A DNA stretch of 43,196 bases from positions 396,275-439,470 of the forward strand of contig JBNAUL010000002.1 in the NCBI GenBank assembly GCA_049700835.1, read 5' to 3'. The stretch is from Candidatus Woesearchaeota archaeon. Its GTDB lineage: Archaea; Nanobdellota; Nanobdellia; Woesearchaeales; WAPY01. Shown here one piece after another: positions 2,200 through 43,196 of this stretch; position 1 is the stretch's first letter, and each line of letters begins with the position of its first letter. The notes under the pieces are model-generated. The model was not told where the DNA came from. It saw only the letters and a program-made list of their open reading frames with translations, and ran no database searches. A program made the position numbers and the translations under genes.

Positions 2200-2234
2200 A
2201 AAATAAAATATAAGGTTTATTTAAATTTAAGCAA

Positions 2235-3041
2235 GTGGTTTTGATGCAAGCATACATAAGAAGATTTTTCCATGGGCTGAAATTGAAGTTGCTGCAGGCA
2301 GGGATAAACTATGGGGTTGAGGAGTTCATAAAGAGAACTTTGATAACGAGTTTGTACTTCACAGTATTCTTATCCTTCATTGTTTTTGTATTCGCGAAAG
2401 AACTGAAAAACAAGTTTCTATACCTCTTAATTCCAGTAATATTCATTTTTTCTTTTCAATACTTTCTAAAGCTTCCTGAGGTCATCATAAGAAAAAAGGA
2501 GAGAATGATTGGAAATGAGCTTGTTTTTGCAGGTAGGTTTCTGATAGTTGAACTTGAATCAGGAGTTCCTATATACAATTCAATAATTAATCTTTCAAAG
2601 AACTTTAAGGTTATAGGAAGTTATTTTCAGCAGATAATAAACAAGGTAAACATGGGAAGCACTATGGAGGAAGCAATAACAGAGGTTATTGAGATTACTC
2701 CTTCGCAAAATTTTAGGAGGATTCTGTGGCAGTTGCTAAATTCCTTAAAAACAGGTGCTGATGTAGCGCAATCCCTAAACGCTGTTGTTGAGCAGATAAC
2801 AAGGGAACAGATGATTGAGATACAGGAATACGGTAGAAAACTAAATCCATTAGCAATGTTCTACATGATGATTGCAGTCATTGTGCCGACACTCGGGCTT
2901 ACGATACTTGTAATAATTGGTTCTTTTCTTGGAATAAATATTGGAATAATGCACTTGCTGCTCATCGCGTTGTTCATAGGTTTCATACAATTCATGTTCA
3001 TGGCAATAATAAACAGCGCAAGACCATCTGTAGGCTTTTAA
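2235..3041 (+). CDS. Type II secretion system F family membrane platform protein (TadB/TadC-like)
   Basis: Two N-terminal TM helices, T2SSF-like cytoplasmic core (ELESGVPIY...GSTMEEAI...SLKTGADVAQSL), two C-terminal TMs; directly after the ATPase. Start may be ATG 2244. Confidence 0.88.
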   Translation: MVLMQAYIRRFFHGLKLKLLQAGINYGVEEFIKRTLITSLYFTVFLSFIVFVFAKELKNKFLYLLIPVIFIFSFQYFLKLPEVIIRKKERMIGNELVFAGRFLIVELESGVPIYNSIINLSKNFKVIGSYFQQIINKVNMGSTMEEAITEVIEITPSQNFRRILWQLLNSLKTGADVAQSLNAVVEQITREQMIEIQEYGRKLNPLAMFYMMIAVIVPTLGLTILVIIGSFLGINIGIMHLLLIALFIGFIQFMFMAIINSARPSVGF

Positions 3042-3071
3042 AAAAATTAAACAAAAATAAAAAATTGGGAA

Positions 3072-4394
3072 ATGAAAGGAAAAAAAATCAGTAGAAATGA
3101 AAGGAAAAGAGAAATTGAAAGCAAGGATAAAAAAGAAAATAGAGAAGAAAACAGAGAGAATAGAGCAAGAATAGAAGAAGCAAAGGAAATAGGGATTAAA
3201 AGCGTAGATTTTAATAAATTGGAAAACAAGAGCGAGCAGAAACCTCAGGAACAAAATAAAAAAAATAAAACTGAAAAAGGCATAGAAGGCATAGAGGAAA
3301 AAAAGAAAAGAATATTCTCAATAGCGCTAAAAAATGCAGGAGAAAAAAACAGGGAAATAAAAAAAAAATTAAAAACCATTGAAGGAGAAAAGGCAAAAAC
3401 TCCTAAAAAGACAACAAACATAAAGAAATTGTTGAAAGAGTACACGCTAAAGGCAGGAATTGAAACAGAGCCAGAGGTAATAAGAAGGAAAATATTTAAT
3501 GCTTCCCTTGTTCTGACGCTTGTTGCAACAATAATAATTTCCTTCAGAGCAATAATTAAAGGAACAGGTTTTATTGATGCTGCAAAATTCATTCTTGCGT
3601 TATGGATTGTTCTGCTCTTTGCTTCGATTGGCGTTTGCTGGCTTATTTTCTTTGTCTATGTTGATTTGCTTATCTACAAAAGAAAGATCGAGATTGAAAA
3701 TGTTCTTGCTGATTTCCTGCAGTTGACATCTGCAAATGTAAGGGCAGGAATGCCGATAGACAAAGCATTGTGGTATTCAATAAGACCGCGCTTTGGTGTT
3801 TTAGCAAAAGAGATGGAAACTGTTGCAAAAGAAACAATGTCAGGAGTTAGTTTAGAAGATGCTCTTACAAGGTTCTCCCAAAAGTACGACTCTGCAACGC
3901 TTAAAAACTCAATCAGCTTATTGATAGAGGGAATAAATGCTGGCGGTGAGGTTGGCTACATTCTTGATAGGATTTCCAACAACATACAAGAAACACAAAT
4001 CATAAGAAGGGAAATGGCTGCGAATGTTATAACATATGTAATATTCATAACATTTGCTTCAATATTGGCAGCCCCTTTTCTAATGGCTCTTTCATACCAA
4101 CTGCTAACAATAATAAACTCCTTAGGGTCTCAGATGGCTACTGAACAGGTTCCAAACACTATGGGACTAAGCATTTCATTCTCAAAGATTGCAATAAATC
4201 CAAGCCAGTTCAGAATTTTTGCAATACTTACACTATCCATAACATCAATGTTTTCTGCAATGATAATCTCAATAATACAGAAGGGAAGCATAAAAGCAGG
4301 GCTTAAATTAATACCAATTTACATAATGATTTCAATAGCATTGTTTTTAATACTGATAAAAATAACCTCATCTTTCTTCGCTAACCTGTTCTAA
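3072..4394 (+). CDS. Type II secretion system F family protein (TadC/TadB-like) with long K/E-rich N-terminal extension
   Basis: LADFLQLTSANVRAGMPIDKAL...GVSLEDAL...GINAGGEVGYIL T2SSF signature, multiple TMs; first ~115 aa are low complexity. Confidence 0.88.
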   Translation: MKGKKISRNERKREIESKDKKENREENRENRARIEEAKEIGIKSVDFNKLENKSEQKPQEQNKKNKTEKGIEGIEEKKKRIFSIALKNAGEKNREIKKKLKTIEGEKAKTPKKTTNIKKLLKEYTLKAGIETEPEVIRRKIFNASLVLTLVATIIISFRAIIKGTGFIDAAKFILALWIVLLFASIGVCWLIFFVYVDLLIYKRKIEIENVLADFLQLTSANVRAGMPIDKALWYSIRPRFGVLAKEMETVAKETMSGVSLEDALTRFSQKYDSATLKNSISLLIEGINAGGEVGYILDRISNNIQETQIIRREMAANVITYVIFITFASILAAPFLMALSYQLLTIINSLGSQMATEQVPNTMGLSISFSKIAINPSQFRIFAILTLSITSMFSAMIISIIQKGSIKAGLKLIPIYIMISIALFLILIKITSSFFANLF

Positions 4395-6543: not shown

Positions 6544-8052
6544 TTATTGCTTGCATTGTTCTTTTAGTGTTTTTTCGCTCTTATAGTAAAGTTTTATCTT
6601 TGGTTTTTGTTCTGATTCTAAAGAATTTATTATAACATCAGCATTCAAAGACTCATCAACCGCTCTTAAAGCAAAACCAAAACCCTTCTTTTTCTTAACA
6701 TAATCAGTAACATCAATATCAAACAAACCTGTTTTCTCAATTTTTTTTGTTTCTATCTTTTCCCCAATCCTAGGCTGAACACTCCACTTTATAATAGAAG
6801 GATTAAAATTATTAGGCAATTCATAAATACTCACCTCAATATTATCACCCTTCAACTCCATAACATTAAACACAAACAAAGCCTTCAACAAATTATTAGA
6901 ATCCAACTTTGAAATGTCTTGATAGATGTAGCTTCTTAGTATGCCATCATCATTTCCAACATGCAAATCAATCCTATTATTAAAATTATTCCCAGGACTT
7001 TTTGAATAAAGATAAAAATCATCCTGCGGATAAACGACCCTTAACTCATAATTAGTTTTATAATCTTCTGTAATACTTATTTTGTCTTCAACACTATCAC
7101 TTATTTGATGATCACACTTGAATCTTGGAGCATCATACTCAACAACAACCTTAACATCCTTATTCAATAAATCACAAGGATCATCAAAGAATTTTTCAAG
7201 CTCTAAAACAACATCCTTGTTAGAACCAACACCAATCTCTGTATTAACTATGTTTAAAACATCAACAAAACTTAATTCCTTACCATTAAACAAAACTCTT
7301 ATATTCTTAATTCTTAACGGAATTTCACCATCATTTTTCAATTTAAAACTCAAAACAACTTTATCCAACAAATTAAGTTTTAAATCATTCATTGCAAGAT
7401 TATAATTTGGAGAAGAACTAACCATCTCAAAATTAATCTCCTCTGCCAAAGCCCTCAAAGCTTCACCACTAACCTGCTTTCCAAAAACAAACAACTCATA
7501 ACTATTACTCCCATTAGGAGCAAAAACATAATAATAATTACTGGCTCCAACAGCAATGGCTCCAACAGCAATGCACGCTATTCCTTTTTCCTCATCAGCG
7601 CAAACAACAGCGCCGCAGCNNNNNNNNNNNNNNNNNNNNNNNNNNNNNNNNNNNNNNNNNNNNNNNNNNNNNNNNNNNNNNNNNNNNNNNNNNNNNNNNN
7701 NNNNNNNNNNNNNNNNNNNGTCTCGTGCTTTTTTTACTACTTCTTCATCCCAAACTATGCTTGGACTCGACATTTGTCCTCCATTAAAATACCATTCCCC
7801 ATTTTCATCATCAAAAAAATTATCTCCCTTCAAGTTTTCTTTTGAAAAATCACAAACATAATCCCCTTCCTGCAAAACATTATTATTATTATCCTTTAAC
7901 AACTTTCCTGTTGTAGATATCTTTAAATCAACATCAAAAAAAGAGTTCTCGCCTGTGAAAAACAACTGCCTTTTCTCATAAGTTTCTGCTCTTGCAAAAA
8001 AACAAAGATAAAAACTCATTATCAAAAATAACAAAATAATCTTTTTGCTCAT
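6544..8052 (-). CDS. Secreted protein with Ig-like region and C-terminal DNRLRE-type domain (spans assembly gap; continuity uncertain)
   Basis: ATG 8052 preceded by GGAGGTG; signal peptide MSKKIILLFLIMSFYLCFFARA. C-terminus DDFYLYSKSPGNNF...LRSYIYQDIS...IKWSVQP...DIDVTDYVK...NSLESEQKPKIKLYY matches the DNRLRE pattern, as does the N-domain of 27365..31429. Confidence 0.65.
   Translation of the reverse strand: MSKKIILLFLIMSFYLCFFARAETYEKRQLFFTGENSFFDVDLKISTTGKLLKDNNNNVLQEGDYVCDFSKENLKGDNFFDDENGEWYFNGGQMSSPSIVWDEEVVKKARDXXXXXXXXXXXXXXXXXXXXXXXXXXXXXXXXXXCGAVVCADEEKGIACIAVGAIAVGASNYYYVFAPNGSNSYELFVFGKQVSGEALRALAEEINFEMVSSSPNYNLAMNDLKLNLLDKVVLSFKLKNDGEIPLRIKNIRVLFNGKELSFVDVLNIVNTEIGVGSNKDVVLELEKFFDDPCDLLNKDVKVVVEYDAPRFKCDHQISDSVEDKISITEDYKTNYELRVVYPQDDFYLYSKSPGNNFNNRIDLHVGNDDGILRSYIYQDISKLDSNNLLKALFVFNVMELKGDNIEVSIYELPNNFNPSIIKWSVQPRIGEKIETKKIEKTGLFDIDVTDYVKKKKGFGFALRAVDESLNADVIINSLESEQKPKIKLYYKSEKTLKEQCKQ
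7620..7719. other. Scaffold gap (100 N)
   Basis: Run of exactly 100 N; true length unknown. Confidence 0.99.
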
Positions 8053-8428
8053 CAAAAACACCTCCTAATTATTTTTTATGTTTTTTATCTTTTTTTTATT
8101 TTTGTCTTTTAAAAATTTTTAATCTCTTTTTAATGTTATCTAAATTTAATCTAACCTTTATTTTTAATTTTTGTTTTTTTATTTTTAATTTTTTACAATT
8201 CTGCTCAAAAACTTTTCACACTTTTGATTTTTAACAAATTATTTTTCTCACAAGATATTTTTATCATAAAATTTTCTTATTCTTTGTTACTTTTTTATTC
8301 TTCTTAGTTTTTATTCATTCATCTCTTTATTTATATTGTTTTTATTTATTTGCTTTTATTTATATTGCTTTTGCTTTTCTTGATCACTAATTTTTACCAA
8401 TGTATTCTTAAAATTTACTTAGAGTTAC

Positions 8429-10729
8429 TTAGAGCGTGCCGTTAATTATGTTTTTCTTGATATAGCGTTTATACCATTGCTCCCATTCAAATAAAATTTT
8501 GTTGCTGTCCAAAAAACCGACCTCTTCTTTAACAGAATCGCAAATTCTGTGGAATTGGTCGTTTCCTTGAATTACATGCTGTGCTTCCAACAAATCGTAC
8601 TTTTTTGTTTCCTCAGCATACTTTACCATTAATTCTTTTATTTTTGCCCTCATTAAAATATTGTTCCAAACAGCATCCCAATTTCCAGCCCATTCTTTAA
8701 CATTGCCTGCAATTGCTTTTATAACATCAGAGTCCCCGTTCTGCAAATCAGGAGTTACTTTTAGTTCGTCTGTTTTTGAATCATACTTCATCAAATCAAC
8801 AAAACCGTTTTCTAATAAAGGATCCTCCTCCCAGAATTTTCTTACTTCTGTTATTTGAGTTACTCTTCTCCATCTATGCAAACCATCAGAACTCCTTATT
8901 GGATTTGCAACTATTATTATGTCTGTTGCCTTGAAACTTGTTTTTGGAACCTGCAAGTCATTAACAACCCTGTCATAAACTCCGTAGGGAGAATCTCCGT
9001 GAATTGTTCCTGCAACAACATGAGCAAGAGCCCCAACTCTCATTGCTTCATACAGAGCCCTTGCTTCTGTGCTTCTAACCTCTCCTATTATTAAGCAAGA
9101 ATCTCCCATTCTAAGAGTAGTTCTTATTCCTTCGTCAGCAGGAACCTCTGAAGTGCCTTTTGTCATTGCGCTCGCAACCTTCATCGGCTGAATATTGTAA
9201 CCTATCTTTCTTAGAGAAGAAACAGGAAGTTCAAGAGTGTCTTCTATTGTTATTATCCTGTACTTTCTCATTATTTCTGTCATCAGAGATCCAAGTATCG
9301 ATGTTTTTCCTGCTGACCTTGTTCCTGCAACCAGCAATGTTCTTGAACCATCTATTATAAAGCTCAGTATTCCTGCTGCCAATGGGGTAATCATCCTGTT
9401 CTTTATAAATAATGGTAAGGTCCAAGGTTTGTCCCTGTGCCTTCTAAAAGCATACGCCAATCCATTTGGATTCAATGGTTCTGAAATAACAGCAACTCTT
9501 GCACTTGCTCCTGGAAGTTCTATTTCTGTGTCCAATATTGGATTTGCTTCGTCCAAAGGCCTTCCTGAAATCATTCTCAGTTTTGAAGCCCATGACTCTG
9601 CCTCTCCAATTGTTGGTATTATGTTTGTTATGCAATCCTCAAAATCTTGGTGGACAATAAAAATAGGGGTCTGCCCCATAGGGCTGTTTATGGTAACATC
9701 CTGAACTTTGTCATCCTGCAACAAAACCTCTATCAGCCCAAAACCAACAGTATATCTCACCAGTATTTCTGTAAGTTGTGTTATCTCTGAATCCTTTAGT
9801 TTTAATCCCTGATAAGAACCAAGCTCCTCTATCAAGTCATAGCCAACATTGTAGAAAACCTGTCTCATTCTGTGAGGATCCACGAACTCTGATTTCTTTG
9901 GCTTGTGCTCTGAGATTATCTTCCTTGCCATGTCAAGCAATTCATATTTTTCCTCAAACAACTTGAATTCAGGAGGCATTAAGTGATAAAGGTTTTGTAT
10001 TGAATCGTAGAGCTTGAATATAGTTACTTCTGTGTCAGGACCTATGAAGTATGTTGCTATCTCGTCTGCATTCTCAGGATAGGAAGCCATGAGTTTTGTG
10101 AACATGAAATCCGGCTTTATGCTCGGACTGAAGAACCTCCTGTAAAGGTCCCTTATTCCGAGAATATATCCTCCAATATTCGGCTTAGCAAGGATTATGA
10201 GTTTTGTCTGTTCAAGCTGTTTTATAAGATAGTTTAGAATTGAGATGTATTTTTCTCTTGCTTTTGCCTCGTCCTCGTCAGATGTTTTGTCGAGTTCTAT
10301 CTCTTCAATCCTTTTTAATCTCCTCAACTCTGCGTAAGCGCCCAATGGGTCGCTCTTAAGCAGATTGAATACAATCTCGTGGAGTTGGTTGTACCATGTA
10401 TTAACGAATTTTGTTGTCTTCAAACCTGAAGAAAGCGCATGATAACTTATGATGTCCTTTTCCTTAACTAATTTGTTGTAAAGATTCGCTATTTCCAAGA
10501 GGAGCTGCAGTTGGTTGAATTCATATTCAAAATCCCTTTTCTGAGAGAAAACAACCTTTGTTACATCCTTGTTCTCCAAGAGTTTTGTTATCACCGAAGC
10601 CATACAGGCAGGAGTGTCCTCTATTGAAGGAACAAAAGGACATTGAGAACAATCAATCTTTAGAACAGTGTCTTCTCCTTCCCTCACAATCTCGCTTGGA
10701 CAGCTTGCTCTTGTTATGTTTGCAGGCAT
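8429..10729 (-). CDS. Large type II/IV secretion system ATPase subunit (VirB11/ArlI-like) with N-terminal Cys motif
   Basis: Walker A AGTRSAGKTS, TIEDTLEL, CLIIGEVRSTEA, GTIHG; ~300-aa N-terminal extension beginning CPS...DCSQC...PACM. Confidence 0.92.
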   Translation of the reverse strand: MPANITRASCPSEIVREGEDTVLKIDCSQCPFVPSIEDTPACMASVITKLLENKDVTKVVFSQKRDFEYEFNQLQLLLEIANLYNKLVKEKDIISYHALSSGLKTTKFVNTWYNQLHEIVFNLLKSDPLGAYAELRRLKRIEEIELDKTSDEDEAKAREKYISILNYLIKQLEQTKLIILAKPNIGGYILGIRDLYRRFFSPSIKPDFMFTKLMASYPENADEIATYFIGPDTEVTIFKLYDSIQNLYHLMPPEFKLFEEKYELLDMARKIISEHKPKKSEFVDPHRMRQVFYNVGYDLIEELGSYQGLKLKDSEITQLTEILVRYTVGFGLIEVLLQDDKVQDVTINSPMGQTPIFIVHQDFEDCITNIIPTIGEAESWASKLRMISGRPLDEANPILDTEIELPGASARVAVISEPLNPNGLAYAFRRHRDKPWTLPLFIKNRMITPLAAGILSFIIDGSRTLLVAGTRSAGKTSILGSLMTEIMRKYRIITIEDTLELPVSSLRKIGYNIQPMKVASAMTKGTSEVPADEGIRTTLRMGDSCLIIGEVRSTEARALYEAMRVGALAHVVAGTIHGDSPYGVYDRVVNDLQVPKTSFKATDIIIVANPIRSSDGLHRWRRVTQITEVRKFWEEDPLLENGFVDLMKYDSKTDELKVTPDLQNGDSDVIKAIAGNVKEWAGNWDAVWNNILMRAKIKELMVKYAEETKKYDLLEAQHVIQGNDQFHRICDSVKEEVGFLDSNKILFEWEQWYKRYIKKNIINGTL

Positions 10730-27364: not shown

Positions 27365-30300
27365 TTATATTTTTACATTAAACACCACTGTTTCGTGATT
27401 TTCGTTGCCAATGCTGTCATAAGCTCTTATTGTCAAAACATTTGTTCCATCTCTTGCTCCTAACATTCCGGTATAATAACTGCAATACCTGCAAAGTTGC
27501 GAATAACGCCCTCCATTCAAACTGTATTCAATGCTGTTTACTTGCTCTCCTGTTGACACAATCAACGGAACATTTCTTGTTGTGTAATTTATTCCATTAC
27601 TTGGTGATGTTATATTTATCATTGGTCCTGTAGTATCTAATATAAACCACCACTTTATAGTTCCAATGTTTCCTGCATTGTCAGCAACTCCCAAAGTAAC
27701 ATTGTATCTTCCATCGTCACTCAAAGTTGGATATGCATCCATGTAATAATTGCTAAATGATGCTGAAATGTTTATCTTTGTTCCATTAGTATCAGGGTAC
27801 TCAAGTTCAACAAAACTTAAACTCGGATTAATTCCCGAACCACCAGAAGTTTCTGAATAACTAGCCCAAAAATTAGGTTCTTTGTTATTTATTTTTGAGC
27901 CATTCATTGGTCTGAAAGCATTAATCACAGGAGGTTTTGTGTCAACCTTGAACTGCTGTTCATAAACAGAGCTGTTGTAGCCAAAACTATCACTTGCCCA
28001 AAATCTCAAAATATTATTTCCTTCTGGTGCTTGGAATGTTGTTTTAGTGCTGAATGAATAAATTGTTCCTGAGCCCCATATGTAATAACCCATTGCTCTT
28101 GGGTTATAAGTGCTGTTAACTTGCAAAGTAATGTTTGGCTTTGTCTTGTACCAACCATCAAAACCATCAGGAGTTAATGGGCTGAATGAATAATTCACAT
28201 CAGGCAAATCCACAACATAAACTGTTTTGTTGCAAATCTGACCAAACCATTCAACTCCTTCTTTTAACATCTGCCAACTGCAATTGTATTTTCCAAGAGT
28301 TAGAGGAGCTGTAATGTCAAAAACAAATGTGTAATTAGAGCCAGTATAAACTGTTATGCCTGATAGAATATCAACCCTGTTCAAACCCCAGATTGTATTA
28401 TCTTGGGGTTGTTGGCTTCCTAATCTAAAGTTTCCTGCAAGAGTCCAATCATTCGTTCCTAAATTCTTCATTGTTAATGAAACTCTTTTTGTTTCTCCTG
28501 CTAAAATTCCATTAGGAATTGTTGAGCCCCAACAAGCAGCATCTCTAGCAGGACAACCTTCGTCTATTGAAGCATCGCAATCATTGTCTAACTCATCACA
28601 AATTTCTGTTGCACCTGGATAAACATTTGCTCTTGTATCATCACAATCAGAATTGCATAATCTAAAACCATCTCCATCACTATCTGCTTCATTTGTAGGA
28701 ATACTTCCATCGCAATCATTGTCTAACTCATCGCAAATTTCTGTTGCACCTGGATAAACATTTGCTCTTGTATCATCACAATCTCCTCTAGGCACACTAG
28801 AATTTGCTTCACCAGGATCTAAGCAGTCCAAATCAGAACTTATAATAGTTGTAAAGTTATTAGGCCTATAACCATCATTGTCAGCATCAACATAACACAA
28901 TTCTAAAGCATCGCAGTTCTCATCAATTCCATCTGCAGGGATTTCTGTAGCATTAGGATTGATTGAAGTATTTTCATCATTACAATCACCGCTTGCCAAA
29001 GCCCTATATTTTCCATAAGCACTGCAATAGCATCTTGAATCAGTTATTCCAAAATAATCCTTGTCATTATCATAATAATAATTAATGCAGTTCAAAGCAT
29101 TCCTTTCATTAATCTTTCCATTGCAGTTATCATCATAAGTAGTTAAGCAGTCCTCAATCATTCCTGGATTAACAGTAGCATTATCATCATTACAATCATT
29201 TCCAACAGGACACTCTGAAGTTAAAGCATAATAACCATCATTGTCATTGTCTGTGCAGTTATAACCAACAGCAATCTGTTTTCTGCATGTTTCTCCAAAC
29301 CAAGTAACTCCTTCTTCAAGCATCTTCCAACTAAAGTTATAAACCCCTGATGCATTAGGAGCAGTTATGTTGAATTTGAAAGTATAATTCTTTCCTGTTG
29401 TTATAACAGCGCTATCAGAAATTTCAACCCTGCTCAAACCCCACAAAGAATTGTCCTGAGAGTCTTGAGAGCCAAGTTTGTAGTTTTTTGCTTTTGTCCA
29501 ACTATCCTTTCCAGTGTTTTTCATAACAACAGAAACCTCTGTTACTGAGTTTGCTGTTACCATGTCAGGAGCAATTATCCCTAAGCATTCTGAATTTCTA
29601 AAATCGCAAACTTCATCAACAAATGCGTTGCAATTATTGTCTATTCCATCGCAAACCTCAGAAGCGTTTGGATGTATTTCAGGATCATGATCATCGCAAT
29701 CATCTCCAGAAGGGCATTCAACAGGATGATATGCAAAATAACCATCGTTGTCATTATCAACGCAGTTTAACTCAACACTAACCATTTTCCTGCAAACACT
29801 ACCAAACCAAGCAACTCCTTCCTTTAACATCTGCCAATCACAATCGTAAATTCCAGGGGTGTTTGGAGCAGTAACATTGAATGCAAAAGTGTAATTTTCA
29901 TTCTTTCCTATACTTATGCTTCCTGATTCAATCTCAACTCTGTTTAAACCCCACCTAGTGTTATTTTCAGGATTTTGAGAACCCAATCTGAATGCATTGA
30001 ATTGTGTCCAAGGTTCTGCTCCTTTGTTTTTCATTGTTATTGAAATCTCATACTTTTTTCCAACATTCATAACATTGGGAATATTGGTTGCAATGCACTC
30101 AGCATCAAGGCAAACCTCATCATAACCATCGCAATTCTCATCAACTCCATTGCCACAAATTTCTGGTGCTCCTGGATAAATCAATGAATTGTTATCATTG
30201 CAATCTACCCTATAATCAAAACCGTCCCTGTCCATATCCAAGAAATCATCAACGCAGTCAGCAAAACCATCATGATCACTATCAGCAAATCCTTCATCAA

Positions 30301-31429
30301 TATGACCGTTGCAATTATTGTCTATTTCATCGCAAACCTCAGAAGCGTTTGGATTTACAGAAGGATTGTTATCATTGCAGTCATTATTAAACAAAGCAGT
30401 GTATTTTCCAATAGGACTACATAAGCACTTTGAATTATTGATTCCAAAGAAATCAGAATCATTATCATAATAATAAACAACGCAACCCTGAGCATTCTCC
30501 TCGTCGCTTATGCCGTTGCAATCATTGTCCAAACCGTCTCCGCAAATCTCAATCCTTGGGAATGCAGTTTCATAAGGAATTCCATTATAATAACATGAAC
30601 TCCATTCTGTCCAATTTCCAAGAATGCAAGTCCTGTTTTCAGTTCCAAACTCGCAAACTCCGATGTCTGTTCCGCAACTTCTGAATTCATAGATGTTTTC
30701 ATCTATCATTCCATTGCAGTTGTTGTCAATATTATCGCATAGTTCTGTAGCATTAGGATAAACCAAAGGATTATTGTCATCGCAATCTCCGCCTTCTGCA
30801 GAATAACCATCCATATCATTGTCAATCTCAAAAGTCAATTCTAAGAATGGCTTGTAAGTTGAGGATTCCCTTGAATTAAAGATTGCTTCATCGCTGAAAA
30901 CAGAACTCTCAGAACTATCAATTATTATCCAACCATAGTTTGGAAATCCATTATAAAATTTCTTAACATCATCGGTAACATCAAAAACAATCCATTGCCC
31001 TGGTGTTTTTGGGATTAAGGCATTAGAACTTGCATCCAAAACATAGTAAGGTTGGTTTCTCCAAGTAACAGAGTTTTCTTGCCAATCATTTGCAATCCTG
31101 TGCAGTTCATAAGTTCTTTCTGAAAACCAAGGAGCACTGCTCAAGTAAATGTTAAATTTTGCAGAGGTCAATGTATAATTGCTCGGTTTTGAAGGAAGGT
31201 CAAACTTTATTAATGCCCTCTTAGGATATAGTATGTTTGCCCTTACTTTTATATAAGAATCGCTTCCATAATTCGTGTTTGGATTTGCAAAACTCACATA
31301 ACTGTCTTTGGTTGCAACTGTAGAACTTGTTATCGCTGCAAAACTTTCTTGAAGCAGCAATAAAATTCCAATTGCAAAGAAGATTATTCTTGCATCTGTA
31401 GAGTTCTTTAAAAATTCTTTTCTCATCAT
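27365..31429 (-). CDS. Large secreted adhesin-like protein: DNRLRE domain, MopE-related Cys/Asp repeats, three NBR1-Ig-like domains, C-terminal Ig-like domains
   Basis: Signal peptide ending SFA; KDSYV...NTNYG...RALIKFD...DVTDDV...FNSRE..KPFLEL; eight DC(D/N)D..(I/V)xP repeats; three MKNxG..W...LGSQ...WGL.RV...F.(I/V)TAP...W.ML.EGV.WFG units. GGGGTG SD precedes ATG 31429/31426. Confidence 0.88.
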   Translation of the reverse strand: MMRKEFLKNSTDARIIFFAIGILLLLQESFAAITSSTVATKDSYVSFANPNTNYGSDSYIKVRANILYPKRALIKFDLPSKPSNYTLTSAKFNIYLSSAPWFSERTYELHRIANDWQENSVTWRNQPYYVLDASSNALIPKTPGQWIVFDVTDDVKKFYNGFPNYGWIIIDSSESSVFSDEAIFNSRESSTYKPFLELTFEIDNDMDGYSAEGGDCDDNNPLVYPNATELCDNIDNNCNGMIDENIYEFRSCGTDIGVCEFGTENRTCILGNWTEWSSCYYNGIPYETAFPRIEICGDGLDNDCNGISDEENAQGCVVYYYDNDSDFFGINNSKCLCSPIGKYTALFNNDCNDNNPSVNPNASEVCDEIDNNCNGHIDEGFADSDHDGFADCVDDFLDMDRDGFDYRVDCNDNNSLIYPGAPEICGNGVDENCDGYDEVCLDAECIATNIPNVMNVGKKYEISITMKNKGAEPWTQFNAFRLGSQNPENNTRWGLNRVEIESGSISIGKNENYTFAFNVTAPNTPGIYDCDWQMLKEGVAWFGSVCRKMVSVELNCVDNDNDGYFAYHPVECPSGDDCDDHDPEIHPNASEVCDGIDNNCNAFVDEVCDFRNSECLGIIAPDMVTANSVTEVSVVMKNTGKDSWTKAKNYKLGSQDSQDNSLWGLSRVEISDSAVITTGKNYTFKFNITAPNASGVYNFSWKMLEEGVTWFGETCRKQIAVGYNCTDNDNDGYYALTSECPVGNDCNDDNATVNPGMIEDCLTTYDDNCNGKINERNALNCINYYYDNDKDYFGITDSRCYCSAYGKYRALASGDCNDENTSINPNATEIPADGIDENCDALELCYVDADNDGYRPNNFTTIISSDLDCLDPGEANSSVPRGDCDDTRANVYPGATEICDELDNDCDGSIPTNEADSDGDGFRLCNSDCDDTRANVYPGATEICDELDNDCDASIDEGCPARDAACWGSTIPNGILAGETKRVSLTMKNLGTNDWTLAGNFRLGSQQPQDNTIWGLNRVDILSGITVYTGSNYTFVFDITAPLTLGKYNCSWQMLKEGVEWFGQICNKTVYVVDLPDVNYSFSPLTPDGFDGWYKTKPNITLQVNSTYNPRAMGYYIWGSGTIYSFSTKTTFQAPEGNNILRFWASDSFGYNSSVYEQQFKVDTKPPVINAFRPMNGSKINNKEPNFWASYSETSGGSGINPSLSFVELEYPDTNGTKINISASFSNYYMDAYPTLSDDGRYNVTLGVADNAGNIGTIKWWFILDTTGPMINITSPSNGINYTTRNVPLIVSTGEQVNSIEYSLNGGRYSQLCRYCSYYTGMLGARDGTNVLTIRAYDSIGNENHETVVFNVKI
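28573..28783. repeat. Intragenic direct repeat, 2 x 76 bp (28573-28648 and 28708-28783), one mismatch
   Basis: Both copies encode DCDDTRANVYPGATEICDELDNDCD; period 135 bp. Confidence 0.92.
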
Positions 31430-31509
31430 AGACACCCCCGACTTTCTTTTTATTGGATTTTCCTTATTTTAATCTATTTTTTCTCAATTTTTTTTCACCT
31501 TTTCCATTT

Positions 31510-32877
31510 CTATGGAATGTTAAGCGTTGATGTAAAAACTTCTGAAGTTGTGTTTCTGAAGACATCAAAAACCCTAAAATAGTATTCTATTAGGGCTGTT
31601 CTGTTGTAAAACAAAAGGTAATTAGTGTTTATTGTTTTAGAGCATCTTGTTTCGTTAAAATTGCAGTTGAATTCTGTTCCTAAAAACTCATTATCAACTC
31701 CTATTATTCTCCAATAAAAAACAACGGCTCTTGGATTTTCTTCTGAAAACTCTATTGTAAAATTTGAGTTTGTTATTGTTGAATTGTTTTGCGGAGAGAT
31801 TGAAATTATAAATGGAGGGATTGAATCAACTTTGAAATTGGTGCTTGCATAAGTGTAATCCCCATTCTTGTAAGCCCTGATTATCAGTTCGTGAATTCCA
31901 TTACTTGCTGTTATGTTTATGCTCTTTGAATTGCAGTTAGAGCATAGATTAACAAAAGGATTTTCATCAAGGGAATAGTCCAAATAAGTTGCTGTTTCAT
32001 TGACTGAAACAATTATTGGAATTGTTCCGTTGTAAAGAGTTAAATTGTTAGGAGAGGTTATGTTGATTTTGAGCCCTTTCTTTTGATAGAAAACCTCTGC
32101 TTCTTCTGTTCTTACGCTAAAGCCCCTGTAATCATCTATCTTGAAATAAAATTTAAGATTAGAGGAAACATTTATTGATGGATTAAAAGTGCAACTCACA
32201 TTTTGGCCAATAGGGCAATCAGTTCTCTTCAATGTTGAAAATGATGTTTCGTTTATTGATTTGTAAAGCAATGTTATGTTGAATTGCGAACTTGAATTAT
32301 AAATAGAGGAATTATAGTTAAGAGTGAAAACAGGGCTTGTTATTGTTTCCATGTTTTTTGGAGAGTAAGACAATATTTTAGGAATTGTTTGGTTTGTTGC
32401 ATAAAAGTTCATGCATACCGTGTTCGTAAATGAATAATAAGAATTACCTTGACATGGACCTTTAGGATAAGTTACAACTTTAAAGCAAAGCTGATAGTTT
32501 CCTGGTTTCAAATCAGATGTGTTTCCAGAGAAAGAATTGCAATTAGTGCATATTGTTTGAGAATAGGTTGTTGCTCCATTGACAACAATAACCAAACTTT
32601 GGACTGTTTCTGAGAGAGTAACATTGTAAAAGACCTTTGGAGTTTGATAGGTATTTTGGGATAATGGTCTTATTATGTTTATCGATGGAAGTTCAGGGCA
32701 AACAGGCGGTTCTCCGCAAACCCAGCACTGGTTGCTTGAACCAGGGCATGCAACGCAAGTTGCTGAGTAAGCAGGATTAGAATTTAGGGCAATGTTTATA
32801 ATGAAAGATAAAATTGAAATCAGCAATAGAGCATTCAGTTTTCCGCAGAACCCTCTAAAAAGTTCTCCACAATTCAT
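31510..32877 (-). CDS. Secreted, sequon-rich Ig-like repeat protein
   Basis: ATG 32877 preceded by GGAGGG; hydrophobic signal; Cys-rich N-terminal segment; alternating INI.SP/(L/I)CxxC and PxI.S.SP.N..TIT beta domains; about 20 NxS/T sequons. Confidence 0.8.
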   Translation of the reverse strand: MNCGELFRGFCGKLNALLLISILSFIINIALNSNPAYSATCVACPGSSNQCWVCGEPPVCPELPSINIIRPLSQNTYQTPKVFYNVTLSETVQSLVIVVNGATTYSQTICTNCNSFSGNTSDLKPGNYQLCFKVVTYPKGPCQGNSYYSFTNTVCMNFYATNQTIPKILSYSPKNMETITSPVFTLNYNSSIYNSSSQFNITLLYKSINETSFSTLKRTDCPIGQNVSCTFNPSINVSSNLKFYFKIDDYRGFSVRTEEAEVFYQKKGLKINITSPNNLTLYNGTIPIIVSVNETATYLDYSLDENPFVNLCSNCNSKSINITASNGIHELIIRAYKNGDYTYASTNFKVDSIPPFIISISPQNNSTITNSNFTIEFSEENPRAVVFYWRIIGVDNEFLGTEFNCNFNETRCSKTINTNYLLFYNRTALIEYYFRVFDVFRNTTSEVFTSTLNIP

Positions 32878-33558
32878 AGACCCTCCATTGTTTTTTGATT
32901 TTCTGCTCAAAAAAAAACACCCCTGAATTTTCACTCCTAAGCATCCTGAATTTATTTTTCTACTAAATTAAAGTTATAATTATTAATTATTATTTAGTAG
33001 AAACTAAGAATATCTTATTTAGTATTTAAATATTACTATTCTAAAAAATTAGCAATGCAAAACATATAAGAAAATAAAGAAATATTTTAAAGTATAGAAA
33101 CAGCAAAGTTACAAAAATTCATTAGAAACTAAAAAGGGACAAAATTGCAGTGAGAATAAAATAGAATAGAATGAATAAAAGAGAAAAAAACAAAAATTCA
33201 ACAAACTGGTTTGAGATTTAATCGAAATAAAATTAAAATTAAAAGAAATAATTTGAATTAAGATTTATCAAAAGCAAAAACAAATTAAATTATTAAATTG
33301 AATTCTTTCTGCGGATTTTTTAATTATTTTTTTCAATTTATCTTATCCCAATCTTTAATTGCTTACAAATAAATTGTTTACAAAGAATAATTTTTAATTA
33401 AACAATAATTTTAGTAATAAAAAATCTCTAATAAAAACTGCTACTAAAAAATAATATTATGAAAAATAAAAACATAAAACAATTAGTTTTAGCAAATAAA
33501 AATTAAAATAGAAAAGTAAGGAGAAAATAAATTTAAATAAAAAAACAAAAAAAATTTT

Positions 33559-34623
33559 TTATATTGCTTCTGCCCAGAAATAAATGCTTCCTGAGTTAAA
33601 GTTTCCATTACAAGGTTCTGGCAAACTCAATCTAAAGGTCAATGCCATCTCTGCACCAGGAGCCAAAATATTCGCCACATAATAAGGCCCTTGTTGTTGC
33701 ACTTGTATAATCTCATTTCTGTCATAGAATGTGCTATCAAAGTGATCTCCATATTCTATTCCAACATAACCCTCAACATCACTTCTTCCATCATCCCTTG
33801 TTGAATAAGCACCATTCACTCCATAATAAGCAAAGTTCTCAAGCCTTAAAACATTGCTGTCAGGACACTTTGCTCCTGAATGTGCAGGGTCATAGAAATC
33901 AGTTCCTGAAATAAACATATCCAACAAAACTCCTGAGTTGTTCTCGCAGCCATTATGCACAAGTATTGTTTTTGAATAAGCAGTTGTTCCTGGCTTTACT
34001 GTTCCAAAATCAAGGTTTGCTCCGATAATCTTTAATTCTAATCTTGGGTTTAAGAACCAGTATTCGTCCTCATCAACAGTGCTAAACAAATCATCTAAAT
34101 CAACAACTGTTGCATGAACCCAATACTCACCATGCATCTGCGGCTCAACAGTAAAAGTACACACATAATAAGCCATCATGTTATCCCCTGGAACATAGTC
34201 TAAAACTTCCTCACCAATCCTTGCATTACAACTCTCGTCTATATACTCTCCCCCTGAAAGAACCTCATCTAAAACACAATTTGCCTCAATATAATCCTCT
34301 GAACCTTGCTCTCCAACTGCAACATAAACATCCTTAATCTTCTCAATTCCATTCTTATCCATCACTAAAACCCTCCACTGAATCTGTTCACCAGTAAAGG
34401 CATAATTGTTAATCCTCTCAACAAGCTCTTCTTCACCACCACTAATCCTCCCTGACTCAAGATAGTCATCCAAAACAACCCTGCCATCACACATCCAAAT
34501 CAACGGCTTAAACTGTTCTGCTTCAATGCTTATTCCAACAGAACTTCCAATCTCAACAGCGTTTGCAAATGCTGTTAAGAGAACTGCTGCTAATAATACG
34601 TCTAATATTGTAGAAACCCTCAA
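33559..34623 (-). CDS. Secreted acidic beta-rich surface protein, copy B
   Basis: TTG start after GGGGTGG; signal peptide ending ANA; own TATA-like element ~34700; sequence from EQFK to the stop identical to copy A. Confidence 0.88.
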   Translation of the reverse strand: MRVSTILDVLLAAVLLTAFANAVEIGSSVGISIEAEQFKPLIWMCDGRVVLDDYLESGRISGGEEELVERINNYAFTGEQIQWRVLVMDKNGIEKIKDVYVAVGEQGSEDYIEANCVLDEVLSGGEYIDESCNARIGEEVLDYVPGDNMMAYYVCTFTVEPQMHGEYWVHATVVDLDDLFSTVDEDEYWFLNPRLELKIIGANLDFGTVKPGTTAYSKTILVHNGCENNSGVLLDMFISGTDFYDPAHSGAKCPDSNVLRLENFAYYGVNGAYSTRDDGRSDVEGYVGIEYGDHFDSTFYDRNEIIQVQQQGPYYVANILAPGAEMALTFRLSLPEPCNGNFNSGSIYFWAEAI

Positions 34624-35799
34624 TCAAACCACCCCTTTTTGTTTGTCAAATGCTTTTTTGCTTGTTCTTATTTATTTTTAAGTTAAAAAAACCTTTTAGT
34701 ATTTAAAAATTTATAATAAGAATTAGTGGTAAAAAGAGATCGTCCTAAGACAGAAGTTAAAACAGCAATAAAGCAGGAACAAAACAGAGAATAAAAAACA
34801 AATAAAAAAATAAAAAAAATTTTAAGTTGCTAAAACCTTATATTGCTTCTGCCCAGAAATAAATGCTTCCTGAGTTAAAGTTTCCATTACAAGGTTCTGG
34901 CAAACTCAATCTAAAGGTCAATGCCATCTCTGCACCAGGAGCCAAAATATTCGCCACATAATAAGGCCCTTGTTGTTGCACTTGTATAATCTCATTTCTG
35001 TCATAGAATGTGCTATCAAAGTGATCTCCATATTCTATTCCAACATAACCCTCAACATCACTTCTTCCATCATCCCTTGTTGAATAAGCACCATTCACTC
35101 CATAATAAGCAAAGTTCTCAAGCCTTAAAACATTGCTGTCAGGACACTTTGCTCCTGAATGTGCAGGGTCATAGAAATCAGTTCCTGAAATAAACATATC
35201 CAACAAAACTCCTGAGTTGTTCTCGCAGCCATTATGCACAAGTATTGTTTTTGAATAAGCAGTTGTTCCTGGCTTTACTGTTCCAAAATCAAGGTTTGCT
35301 CCGATAATCTTTAATTCTAATCTTGGGTTTAAGAACCAGTATTCGTCCTCATCAACAGTGCTAAACAAATCATCTAAATCAACAACTGTTGCATGAACCC
35401 AATACTCACCATGCATCTGCGGCTCAACAGTAAAAGTACACACATAATAAGCCATCATGTTATCCCCTGGAACATAGTCTAAAACTTCCTCACCAATCCT
35501 TGCATTACAACTCTCGTCTATATACTCTCCCCCTGAAAGAACCTCATCTAAAACACAATTTGCCTCAATATAATCCTCTGAACCTTGCTCTCCAACTGCA
35601 ACATAAACATCCTTAATCTTCTCAATTCCATTCTTATCCATCACTAAAACCCTCCACTGAATCTGTTCACCAGTAAAGGCATAATTGTTAATCCTCTCAA
35701 CAAGCTCTTCTTCACCACCACTAATCCTCCCTGACTCAAGATAGTCATCCAAAACAACCCTGCCATCACACATCCAAATCAACGGCTTAAACTGTTCTG
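33559..35799. repeat. Direct repeat, 2 x 962 bp (33559-34520 and 34838-35799), period 1279 bp
   Basis: No differences seen by eye and translations are identical. Identity begins exactly at the stop codon and ends in the codon before EQFK. Confidence 0.93.
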
Positions 35800-35899
35800 T
35801 CTCAATGTTTATGCCAACTCCAGTTCCTATATTAACTGCTCCTACTAATGGTAGTAAAAACAACAGAGCAGTTATTCCGCCTAAAAGTTTTTTATCCAT
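34838..35899 (-). CDS. Secreted acidic beta-rich surface protein, copy A
   Basis: ATG after GGAGGT; signal peptide ending VGA; mature start AVNIGTGVGINIET. Confidence 0.9.
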   Translation of the reverse strand: MDKKLLGGITALLFLLPLVGAVNIGTGVGINIETEQFKPLIWMCDGRVVLDDYLESGRISGGEEELVERINNYAFTGEQIQWRVLVMDKNGIEKIKDVYVAVGEQGSEDYIEANCVLDEVLSGGEYIDESCNARIGEEVLDYVPGDNMMAYYVCTFTVEPQMHGEYWVHATVVDLDDLFSTVDEDEYWFLNPRLELKIIGANLDFGTVKPGTTAYSKTILVHNGCENNSGVLLDMFISGTDFYDPAHSGAKCPDSNVLRLENFAYYGVNGAYSTRDDGRSDVEGYVGIEYGDHFDSTFYDRNEIIQVQQQGPYYVANILAPGAEMALTFRLSLPEPCNGNFNSGSIYFWAEAI

Positions 35900-36255
35900 T
35901 TTCCTAACCTCCGTTTATTTTTGTTTTTTATCAGCAAAGCATATTTTTGTTTAGCATTGCGCAATGCTTTGCTCTTTTTCCTGTTGGTCTTGCTTTTTAC
36001 TCAAGCTGCTCCTTTGCGAGCTGCTTGTTAAGTAAGCAAAACCAACGAGGAGCATAAGTGAATTTATCTTTGCATTATCTTTGCATCTTACTTTTGATGA
36101 ACTGATTAAACCCTTGATTCTTATGATGAGTGAGCGTGGAGATTTTCAGAAACATGCTCTCCGCCTTTCCTTCAACCCCCAACCTTTCCACCCCAAGCGA
36201 TTTTTTTATTTTATTTTAGTTAATATATATTACTATTCTTAAATAACAATTATTA
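35900..36255 (-). promoter_or_regulatory. Long structured 5' leader (or ncRNA) upstream of copy A
   Basis: TATA-like TTTAAATA (minus strand) at 36278-36285; imperfect 64-nt hairpin 35983-36046; 16-bp palindrome 35953-35968; stem 36134-36164; G-tract 36165-36198. GC content is higher than other spacers. Confidence 0.55.
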
Positions 36256-37105: not shown

Positions 37106-37888
37106 CTAATCAACGATTACTGATTTCGGCCTCTTTCTTGAGGTCTCATAAACAAAGTAAATTATTATTAAGAGCATTACTACCAAAGGAGCAATGAGCC
37201 AATCTCTTGAATTCTTTCTTGTTTGTTTTGCATTTTCAATTCCTGTCTTGTTTTGTGCAGTTTTGTTTGCTTCGTTTGCTTTGTTTGCTCTTTCTCTGTT
37301 CTCCGATGCTTGCTCTTTTTTGTCATCGAGAACAATTTTGTAAGGGCTCTCTTTTAAAACTATGAGGATACTCTTCAAGGAACTCATTTCTGCCTTGAAA
37401 TAATGAAAGTGCTCATCTTTGGAATACTCTGTTGTTTCCTGCTCTTCAACATTCTTCCTGTCAAAGAGAAGCAGTGCTATGCTGCTCTGCCCTGATTTGC
37501 TTTTATTTTCTATAAATTCGTTCTTAACCTTGAAATAGAATTCTGTTCTGCTCAGAGCGCTTTCAGGAATGTTGTGAGTAATGTTCAAAAACGAATAAAT
37601 CTTAATGCCCAAAGCAGAGAGGTTCTCAAAGATACTATAATTGTGTGACTCTTCAATGCTTATCCTTGCATTTGTGATACTTTTGTTCATGTGCAAATCA
37701 AATCTTGTTATGCTGAAGTTTTCTGTCAACTGATGCTTTGGAATTTCTGTTGTTGAAACCCCTTCCATCAGCAAATCCCATTCCCTGAAAAAACTCTTTG
37801 TTCTGTTCTGAGCAAATCCGTTCTGAGAAAAAAACAGCAAGAATAATGCCAATTCAATAAATCCTAAAAATTCTTTTACCGTGCTCAT
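37106..37888 (-). CDS. PGF-pre-PGF-like domain surface protein with C-terminal TM anchor
   Basis: Signal peptide; IYSFLNIT...EFYFKVKNEFIE...YFKAEMSSLKSILI resembles the PGF-pre-PGF domain; polar linker, TM and basic tail. Confidence 0.65.
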   Translation of the reverse strand: MSTVKEFLGFIELALFLLFFSQNGFAQNRTKSFFREWDLLMEGVSTTEIPKHQLTENFSITRFDLHMNKSITNARISIEESHNYSIFENLSALGIKIYSFLNITHNIPESALSRTEFYFKVKNEFIENKSKSGQSSIALLLFDRKNVEEQETTEYSKDEHFHYFKAEMSSLKSILIVLKESPYKIVLDDKKEQASENRERANKANEANKTAQNKTGIENAKQTRKNSRDWLIAPLVVMLLIIIYFVYETSRKRPKSVIVD

Positions 37889-42929: not shown

Positions 42930-43196
42930 TCATTTTATATAACAACAAACTCCTCCATCAGGACAATAACCATTATAATAAAGAGTAGCTTCATAAAAAA
43001 TCCAACAAACAGGAGAATAATAGGAATAACTACTATTACAAGAATCAACACAACTTGGATGCTCAAGATAAGGAAGCTGAATACATTCCCAGCTATTACT
43101 ATAATTATCTATATAACAATAAGGATAATAAAAAAGAATAATAATATTTTCACACCTTATGCAATCCTTAGGACAATTAGCAGGAGTTTCTCCACT
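42930..43196 (-). CDS. 3' end of a Cys/Tyr-rich extracellular protein (5'-truncated; absent from the ORF track)
   Basis: Manual translation: SGETPANCPKDCIRCENIIILFYYPYCYIDNYSNSWECIQLPYLEHPSCVDSCNSSYSYYSPVCWIFYEATLYYNGYCPDGGVCCYIK* (TGA 42930-42932). GETxxNCPxDC is a common Cys-repeat motif of secreted proteins. Confidence 0.75.
   Translation of the reverse strand, partial: SGETPANCPKDCIRCENIIILFYYPYCYIDNYSNSWECIQLPYLEHPSCVDSCNSSYSYYSPVCWIFYEATLYYNGYCPDGGVCCYIK

Follow-up and report, generated by a model that had tools for sequence, protein, structure and literature searches.

Introduction

In chaperone-usher systems (FimH/PapG, CfaB/CfaE), pilins combine an immunoglobulin (Ig)-like acceptor domain with an N-terminal donor strand, and the adhesins have cargo ahead of a C-terminal pilin domain and carry no donor strand. 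Engineered self-complemented pilins of this type have the strand placed after the C-terminus. Here we compare these and other donor-strand fibres with a pair of neighbouring genes, copies A and B (the twin genes), in a 43,196-nucleotide stretch of the genome of a Candidatus Woesearchaeota archaeon (GenBank assembly GCA_049700835.1, contig JBNAUL010000002.1, positions 396,275 to 439,470 of the forward strand; hereafter the window).

Several fibres joined by strand donation have been described. Fibrils of TLP-1a and of TLP-1b were recovered from pond water (PDB 9IKJ and 9IKK; CryoSeek, PMC11494351). In the fibril, the head takes up the N-terminal strand of a different protomer between its own first and last strands, and AlphaFold2 (AF2) left this strand disordered (PMC11494351). 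Fibres of the TasA superfamily (Bacillus subtilis TasA, 8AUR; the archaeal AbpA and AbpX and the CanX cannulae) are described as donating an N-terminal strand without a chaperone, by subunits that carry Sec signal peptides (PMC9674648, PMC9245690, PMC12518558), and passages on their loci place AbpX and TasA genes often next to a signal peptidase I (SPase I) gene (PMC12518558). Homologues of AbpA, CanX and the thread occur mainly in Thermoproteota, and the text of the same paper mentions neither DPANN archaea nor Woesearchaeota or Nanoarchaeota (PMC12518558). The Sulfolobus thread filament (Saci_0406) is presented as archaeal, chaperone-free and donor-strand-complemented, with an unknown anchoring (PMC9715654). 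Tat-dependent bundling pili are listed among the known archaeal donor-strand fibres. The Pam pili (PamA/PamB) of bacteria of the Candidate Phyla Radiation (CPR) are described as having two-domain pilins, a beta-sandwich plus an Ig-like acceptor, that undergo donor-strand exchange, and the Pam operons of these ultra-small episymbionts as also encoding tip and terminating proteins (PMC13278184).

Little is known of how DPANN archaea attach to hosts and surfaces, and the majority of their surface proteins have no annotation. The family of the twin proteins is a candidate for how tiny symbiont-type archaea attach and, if the reading given below is true, a two-domain archaeal class would join the donor-strand fibres.

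Twin genes for a candidate fibre subunit

On balance, we favour the view that the twin genes encode two isoforms of the major subunit of a surface fibre that is donor-strand-complemented, needs no chaperone and occurs in a minority of Woesearchaeota/Pacearchaeota-type DPANN archaea. Donor-strand complementation is the best-supported reading of comparative architecture and of secondary structure in two models.

The source genome (1.07 Mb, 98.7% complete, four contigs) encodes copies A and B and no further ones, and genes nearby in the window are archaeal in kind by Pfam (SepF, NMD3, archaeal CCA-adding enzyme). Both products are predicted to be secreted via a cleavable signal peptide and to bear neither a membrane nor a lipid anchor. 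At the predicted cleavage site, of a small-x-small kind, Ala occupies position -1 in 85% and Val position -3 in 71% of 290 relatives, and the C-terminus (...GSIYFWAEAI) lacks a hydrophobic stretch. The mature proteins have an isoelectric point of 4.1 (56-57 Asp plus Glu, 19 Lys plus Arg) and 7 Cys, six of them invariant in a 44-sequence family alignment. In BLASTP the copies are identical at 328 of 336 residues. The mature chains, 332 residues each, differ at five positions, all within the first 14 residues (VNIGTGVGINIETE in copy A and VEIGSSVGISIEAE in copy B) and all at non-hydrophobic positions of the alternating pattern; the remaining differences are confined to the signal peptide. An earlier note, written from the DNA alone, had described twin secreted, acidic, seven-Cys proteins without an anchor, had identified the putative donor strand as the only mature part that differs and had pointed to a strong Shine-Dalgarno sequence before copy A; all three observations are borne out.

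In the AF2 model of copy A (44-row alignment; predicted local distance difference test, pLDDT, 87.7; predicted template-modelling score, pTM, 0.75), a signal-peptide helix (residues 4-13) is followed by coil (22-39) and two beta-sandwich domains (about 36-192 and 193-353). The N-terminal strand is part of the coil, with a pLDDT of about 58 for residues 21-30, and the A' segment of domain 2, LDFGTV (203-208), contains no DSSP strand. Packing of the strand within its own chain is the outcome that the earlier note had named as speaking against strand donation; the monomer model leaves the strand unpacked, and the donor-strand idea therefore stands. Conservation across 290 relatives is 2.55 bits in this strand against 2.65 in the rest of domain 1, and the last strand of domain 2 (IYFWAEA, 346-352) is the most conserved segment at 3.56 bits.

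Strand and edge in natural relatives

Natural concatemers suggest where the strand goes. P0121 (P numbers denote family proteins) has two modules, and P0122 and P0272 each contain three copies of domain 2. Counted from the sequences, 21-26 residues separate '...FWG' of one module from the next 'F.P'; in single-module proteins, the free C-terminal tail and the free N-terminal strand together make 18 residues. The AF2 model of P0121 (pLDDT 86.4) turns the inter-module segment 352-363 into a 12-residue beta-strand with a pLDDT of 90-94, beginning 8 residues past the last strand of the preceding module (336-343). Both A' segments (189-194 and 520-525) are strands in this model, and a strand follows each module. 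At its end, P0121 carries an extra copy of the strand, SVGTGVGTTITVG, with no module after it; this is modelled as a strand at 670-681, with the pLDDT falling from 78 to 50. Its reading frame closes with a genuine stop codon, after which the contig continues for another 322 nt.

The C-terminus is otherwise tightly fixed: of 518 distinct family proteins that reach the end of the profile, 501 stop exactly there and 9 extend by 1-3 residues. Tails of at least 22 residues occur in 8 entries (7 different proteins), and all open with a short linker, 7-11 residues long in six proteins and about 15 in the seventh, leading into a strand-like stretch. Four of these long tails bear the G-x-G motif of the N-terminal strand, as judged by eye. 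P0223 is without an N-terminal strand, so that its domain 1 would fold unaided by one, and instead carries the linker and SVGLGITPEIIVA at its C-terminus, which argues that the strand goes functionally with the C-terminal edge of domain 2 and not with domain 1. P0269 (462 aa) has a module, a linker and a strand-like stretch and continues into a stalk-like, Ser/Thr-rich run of low complexity of about 90 residues; going by its sequence, it might serve the system as a base or anchor.

As modelled, canonical single-module proteins leave both the strand and the edge free, and the acceptor edge of domain 2, between the A' segment and the last strand, appears to be open. The linker between the strand and domain 1 is 4-5 residues long and includes the near-invariant F37 and P39 (44-sequence alignment), and the junction of domains 1 and 2 is modelled as confidently rigid (pLDDT about 90, at the same pTM of 0.75). 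In the concatemers, domain 1 of module k+1 would abut domain 2 of module k via the strand, with its own domain 2 joined elsewhere. One chain would therefore be unable to hold both positions, so that an open-ended chain would be the simplest outcome. That a concatemer can contain as many as three domain 2 copies fits a linear rather than a planar assembly.

The proposed fibre would form as follows. Subunits would be exported by Sec and cleaved, in copy A after Ala21, to give a mature protein with a free, amphipathic N-terminal strand of 12-14 residues, an Ig-like domain 1 and a PapD/ASH-like domain 2 with an edge that is predicted, from secondary structure in the models, to be open between LDFGTV and IYFWAEAI. 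The N-terminal strand of the next subunit would fill this edge beside the free C-terminus, as it seems to do within the concatemers, and extend an open-ended head-to-tail chain. The loop between C115 and C131 of domain 1, into which relatives insert their cargo domains, would face outward. The role of end subunits would fall to paralogues with cargo at the N-terminus, of which about half lack the first part of the strand up to its middle, and the two Ig-repeat proteins encoded downstream may act with the fibre, probably as its adhesive or attaching parts. Gene conversion would keep the bodies of the two copies identical, with the differing 5' ends lying outside the converted tract.

A different use of the same strand is conceivable. 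The twin protein could be a non-polymerising scaffold, secreted or attached to the surface, in which the strand binds its own chain or a Big_13-type partner protein and a small hetero-complex results that holds an adhesin. P0223 and P0121 do fill every edge within one chain, and homopolymerisation of the twin proteins is itself a deduction from models. We nevertheless regard the scaffold as unlikely: the canonical proteins have a free strand and a free edge, and the linker of 4-5 residues with F37 and P39, together with the rigid domain junction, would make binding within the same chain sterically improbable. P0223 and P0121, as natural self-complemented relatives, could be used as monomeric controls.

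Predicted fold compared with known fibres

Domain 1 of the copy A model is a generic fold, with Z scores of 8-9 to many unrelated Ig/E-set domains in VIA-align; its loop between C115 and C131 is variable (1.01 bits at 116-130, 290 relatives). The top-ranked match of domain 2 is the ASH/PapD-like domain of CEP192 (6fvi_A; Z 8.1, 102 residues aligned). TLP-1b (9ikk_A) follows at Z 7.9 (root-mean-square deviation, rmsd, 3.5; 12% identity) and, with 144 residues aligned, has the widest coverage of the solved chains. The TasA fibre subunit (8aur_A) aligns with residues 193-353 at Z 6.2 (rmsd 3.6, 128 aligned), a score within the range of unrelated Ig domains. These Z values may reflect a common arrangement only, and we treat them as leads and not as proof of membership. 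With the whole model, Foldseek returned generic tandem-Ig matches from the PDB, at TM-scores of 0.14-0.32, and no clear relative; the matches were to a sialidase linker/CBM, CfaB fusions, MSCRAMMs, antigen I/II, CEP192 and RbmA. Domain 2 resembles the TLP-1b and TasA subunits only moderately.

TLP-1 resembles the twin proteins in being a secreted subunit with an Ig-like head and an N-terminal strand that AF2 leaves disordered. It differs in having a single-domain protomer, an n+4 donor in a tubule and a nearest predicted relative from a Flavobacteriales bacterium (PMC11494351). The twin family, in contrast, is archaeal, inserts an extra Ig domain between strand and acceptor and shows no sequence match to TLP-1, and the Z score between them lies in the ambiguous range. 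To the TasA superfamily the link is the alignment of domain 2 just given; unlike TasA, the twin family has no Pfam match, has two domains, belongs to another lineage and, in the genome studied here, lies more than 270 kb from an SPase I gene. From the thread it is set apart by an unrelated sequence family, that of the thread being from Thermoproteota, and by one glycosylation sequon in the twin protein as against the isopeptide bonds and heavy glycosylation given for the thread (PMC9715654).

The closest analogy in lifestyle is offered by Pam, compared here by its description. Pam is bacterial, its donor is described as a linker strand and its acceptor as a truncated Ig domain (PMC13278184). 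Membrane-anchored PapD-like chaperones encoded in the operon are part of the Pam system as described (PMC13278184), whereas the twin cassette includes nothing chaperone-like. The likeness to chaperone-usher pilins lies in P0121 and P0223, which naturally place a strand after the C-terminus as the engineered pilins do, and in weak Foldseek and VIA-align matches to CfaB fusions and CfaE, at TM-scores of only 0.2-0.3. In those pilins, however, the donated strand replaces a missing last strand, whereas the twin family keeps its last strand and would receive an extra one beside it, in an archaeon without chaperone, usher or outer membrane.

Several observations weigh against the fibre that we favour. 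Strand pairing was read from DSSP strings alone, AF2 readily predicts a hairpin where a beta-strand precedes, the alignment behind module 1 of P0121 consists of six tandem proteins with the query included, and the terminal strand of P0121 is modelled with low confidence. Variants with a strand after the module fill the edge in-chain, and canonical proteins might do likewise and stay monomeric. Z scores of domain 2 are mostly under about 8, the range that the tool assigns to common arrangements, and the top-ranked match, an ASH/PapD domain, is not from a filament protein. The mature protein has a single N-glycosylation sequon, which is unusual for archaeal surface fibres. The strand motif was found, by regular expression and a small hidden Markov model, in no other open reading frame (ORF) of at least 50 aa read stop to stop in the genome, and in no small ORF in the gaps flanking the twin genes. 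Across 73 family loci, no chaperone-like, peptidase or anchor gene recurs in the cassette, although divergent chaperones could escape such a search. A three-chain complex prediction (mature chain, family alignment, no controls) gave values of the interface score ipSAE of 0.16 and 0.00 and neither supports nor opposes strand exchange. The proposal of the earlier note that the N-terminal strand complements the next subunit gains support from the unpacked strand of the monomer, the fusions, the C-terminal tails and P0223.

Module architectures

Among 149 family representatives, 57 are at least 450 aa long, and 49 of these 57 end exactly at ...FWGEAI/V. In 19 of the 57, cargo of about 60-950 aa lies inside domain 1, with the signal peptide and strand kept at the N-terminus; most such inserts fall at profile positions of about 110-140, i.e., between the conserved Cys115 and Cys131. 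In another 20 representatives the cargo, made up of Cys-rich repeats, a beta-helix or other segments, precedes the module. Here, 11 of the 20 profile matches start inside or after the strand, the first half of which is replaced by the end of the cargo, and 9 retain it. A strict regular expression for the strand failed to separate the architectures (4/13 vs 3/21). In a strand-exchange fibre, a subunit without a donor strand fits at one end only, and the cargo-headed forms would accordingly suit the role of end subunits. One further long entry, P0149 (1701 aa), is rich in thrombospondin-type-3/MopE motifs, ends in a transmembrane segment and then continues in frame into a signal peptide and a full family module; it is probably two adjacent genes called as one.

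Since the module sits at the extreme C-terminus with the same ending in those 49 of 57 long representatives, it could also be a sorting or envelope-binding domain with a logic like that of type IX secretion C-terminal domains, the stand-alone copies being cargo-less. This seems very improbable to us. The stand-alone form of about 350 aa is the commonest, is highly conserved (about 57% identity) and is often duplicated (13 of 73 loci). The 19 long forms with inserts have their cargo within the module and not ahead of it, and the family has no linked gene for a processing enzyme or a receptor.

Across the 57 long representatives, the placement of cargo spares both termini of the module, which are the parts that a donor-strand fibre would use. 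A more far-reaching picture is possible, which we put forward tentatively and hold with some doubt: a DPANN-specific, chaperone-free 'plug-in' fibre in which plain, loop-insert and cargo-headed subunits would co-polymerise through one strand-and-edge connector to make a modular adhesive filament by which tiny episymbiotic archaea would hold on to hosts or surfaces. The rarer relatives with a C-terminal strand would be self-capped, and gene conversion between tandem copies would preserve a uniform connector as the N-terminal strand and the surface loop diversify. Strand linkage as such, if right, would explain why cargo is found only in one loop or at the N-terminus.

Family distribution

Neither copy matches Pfam at E values up to 0.1 or NCBIfam at E values up to 1. 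A profile of 44 relatives searched against PDB sequences returned nothing relevant, the sole return being an unrelated acetyltransferase at E 0.85, and full-text searching of the literature found no description of the family. Its members are numerous. A search of 90%-identity clusters gave 1,139 hits at E up to 1e-3, every one labelled 'hypothetical' and most of them 55-60% identical; at 50% identity there are 370 clusters, and species-representative genomes have 222 relatives. The closest homologues are labelled Woesearchaeota, Pacearchaeota or Nanoarchaeota. Judged from these matches, the family is an unannotated one of Woesearchaeota/Pacearchaeota-type DPANN archaea. A viral origin, suggested by an Atlas cluster label, was discarded, as none of 19 pattern matches in viral contigs encodes a relative.

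In a sample of the phylum (401 genomes, all at least 90% complete), the family occurs in 30 genomes and in 23 of 281 genera, the positives including an unpublished genome (G359). In a sample of the order it occurs in 29 of 201 genomes, and in 24 of the 166 that are at least 90% complete. Genomes counted as lacking the family are those of the samples that gave no match at E up to 1e-10. Some taxonomic families carry the protein family in three of three genomes; in the window's own taxonomic family, it was found in none of three other genomes (94-100% complete). The protein family is inherited within lineages and is far from universal.

This patchiness bears on the alternative that the earlier note had named, an S-layer protein. 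The module could tile the cell surface as part of an S-layer or other planar lattice, with insert- and cargo-bearing relatives co-assembling. The secreted, acidic, Ig-like and unanchored character of the twin proteins would agree with this, as would the putative T-rich terminator that each copy has of its own, and constrained termini with cargo in a loop would suit a lattice too. There is also a generic Ig match to the S-layer protein 7ptp_A (Z 7.0), which is no better than the matches to dozens of unrelated Ig domains. A general S-layer protein is not expected to be distributed in so patchy a manner, the concatemers link modules head-to-tail in line, and no anchoring partner was found. The alternative is thereby weakened, and we keep it at low weight as distinctly improbable.

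Gene neighbourhood

Family genes tend to occur in groups with other secreted proteins. In 13 of 73 family loci, two to four family genes lie within 6 kb; a long form usually shares its strand with a short one and sits downstream of it. In 56 of the 73 loci there is also a partner family, whose members are secreted proteins with Ig repeats (Big_13) and a length of about 375, 560 or 730 aa; of its 76 ORFs, 47 come directly downstream on the same strand, at no more than 600 nt. Often next in line is a larger partner whose head varies (lamin-tail domain, beta-helix). Beyond this, more than 10 of the 73 loci share just one other gene family. From their translations, the conserved Big_13 neighbours have no C-terminal hydrophobic segment.

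The two genes downstream of copy B fit this pattern (Table 1). Partner 1 has weak Big_7/Big_5 matches, with Big_13 found in its orthologues. By Pfam, partner 2 combines CBM96, nine MopE metal-binding motifs, NBR1-type Ig domains and the C-terminal Ig repeats common to the partner cluster. Comparative synteny indicates that a family gene and the two partners form a conserved three-gene cassette, and the link to downstream Ig and adhesin genes suggested in the earlier note is thus supported. The frequency of partners, mostly directly downstream, would also suit the scaffold with a Big_13 partner discussed above; against that scaffold, the partners show no strand-like motif, and many carrier genomes have one short family gene and no long one.

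No signal peptidase gene was found near the locus: the genome has two archaeal SPase I matches, on the same contig at C2:86947 and C2:157709, and with the twin locus at about C2:430000 both are more than 270 kb away.

Table 1. Positions of the twin genes, their parts and the two downstream partner genes in the window
Feature	Position	Strand	Details
Copy A gene	34838..35899	-	353 aa, ATG start; signal peptide, N-terminal strand, domain 1, domain 2
Copy A signal peptide	35837..35899	-	aa 1-21 (...LVGA then V); predicted cleavage site
Copy A N-terminal strand	35795..35836	-	aa 22-35, VNIGTGVGINIETE; putative donor strand
Copy A domain 1	35324..35794	-	aa 36-192; generic Ig/E-set beta-sandwich
Copy A domain 2	34841..35323	-	aa 193-353; PapD/ASH-like Ig domain, putative acceptor
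Shine-Dalgarno-like GGAGGT	35907..35912	-	8 nt before copy A ATG; read from sequence
T-rich run 3' of copy A stop	34797..34822	-	T8 A T7; likely archaeal terminator (predicted role)
Copy B gene	33559..34623	-	354 aa, TTG start; body same as copy A
Copy B signal peptide			aa 1-22
Copy B N-terminal strand	34516-34557	-	aa 23-36
Identical tract in copy B	33559..34520	-	962 nt, 100% identical to copy A 34838-35799; putative gene-conversion or recent-duplication tract
T-rich run 3' of copy B	~33535-33558		near-identical to that of copy A; read from sequence
Downstream partner 1	31510..32934	-	474 aa, secreted, Cys-rich, Big_13-type Ig repeats; blastp E 1e-25 to partner cluster
Downstream partner 2	27365..31435	-	1356 aa, secreted; blastp E 4e-18 to large partner proteins

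Probable gene conversion between the copies

The identical DNA of the two copies (longest common substring; Table 1) starts at the second base of codon 34 in copy A and 35 in copy B and runs through the stop codon. Past a 13-nt indel, the likeness resumes for about 25 nt of T-rich 3' flank. Upstream, the first approximately 100 nt of the genes are alike only loosely in a DNA alignment. A step in identity from about 60% to 100% is incompatible with uniform divergence and argues for a gene-conversion or recombination tract; the pattern of differences between the copies looks like the edge of such a tract. A G/T-only wobble bias in the twin genes was ruled out, as third positions are A 27%, C 10%, G 21% and T 42%.

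The earlier note had proposed that the difference between the strands tunes the order of assembly. This does not hold as a rule of the family, where other tandem pairs differ elsewhere. In one pair (locus L007) a single residue distinguishes the strands, and it is the domain 1 loop that diverges; four others differ over their whole length, the 3' part being generally the most alike. Recurrent 3' conversion or stronger selection on domain 2 fits these pairs, as judged from their sequences, better than strand tuning does.

In sequencing run X1, which may be the source sample, an 823-nt contig piece starts inside copy B, takes in the unique 5' end of that copy and the complete spacer, and stops 30 nt into the 3' end of copy A; it is one letter under the bridging criterion of the tool. 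A second hot-spring run, X2, from another study, has contig pieces of at least 99% identity over copy A, including its unique 5' end, and no piece on the unique 5' end of copy B or on the spacer, an uncovered part that proves nothing. The copy number of the twin genes may differ between the populations.

Upstream of copy A, 34-74 nt before the ATG (35933-35973), lie 10-nt inverted-repeat arms, AGCAAAGCAT and ATGCTTTGCT, 21 nt apart. A perfect 16-bp palindrome, AGCATTGCGCAATGCT, is nested inside them. A possible role for these repeats, which are absent upstream of copy B, is that of an operator or RNA hairpin.

Other genes of the window

The window also encodes components of a type IV filament at 667-4394 and 8429-10729, namely a T2SSE/PilB-like ATPase, two T2SSF platform proteins and a second T2SSE-like ATPase. 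The usual archaeal pilus system is thus present in this organism as well, at a distance of about 25-34 kb from the twin genes. Between these two groups, at 6544-8061 on the reverse strand, a 505-aa protein with a C-terminal CBM96 is encoded, the domain that also heads the 1356-aa partner protein. The third positions of its gene are T-rich, and the GC skew of its coding strand is 0.46, compared with 0.38 for the twin genes.

The reverse strand at 37106-37888, past sepF and two genes upstream of copy A, encodes a protein of 260 aa that combines a PGF-pre-PGF domain (TIGR04213, E 1.6e-7) with a C-terminal transmembrane helix; this gene is not among the recurrent neighbours of the family. At the edge of the window (42930-43196, reverse strand), the start of a Cys-rich ORF that runs off the window may belong to a further surface protein.

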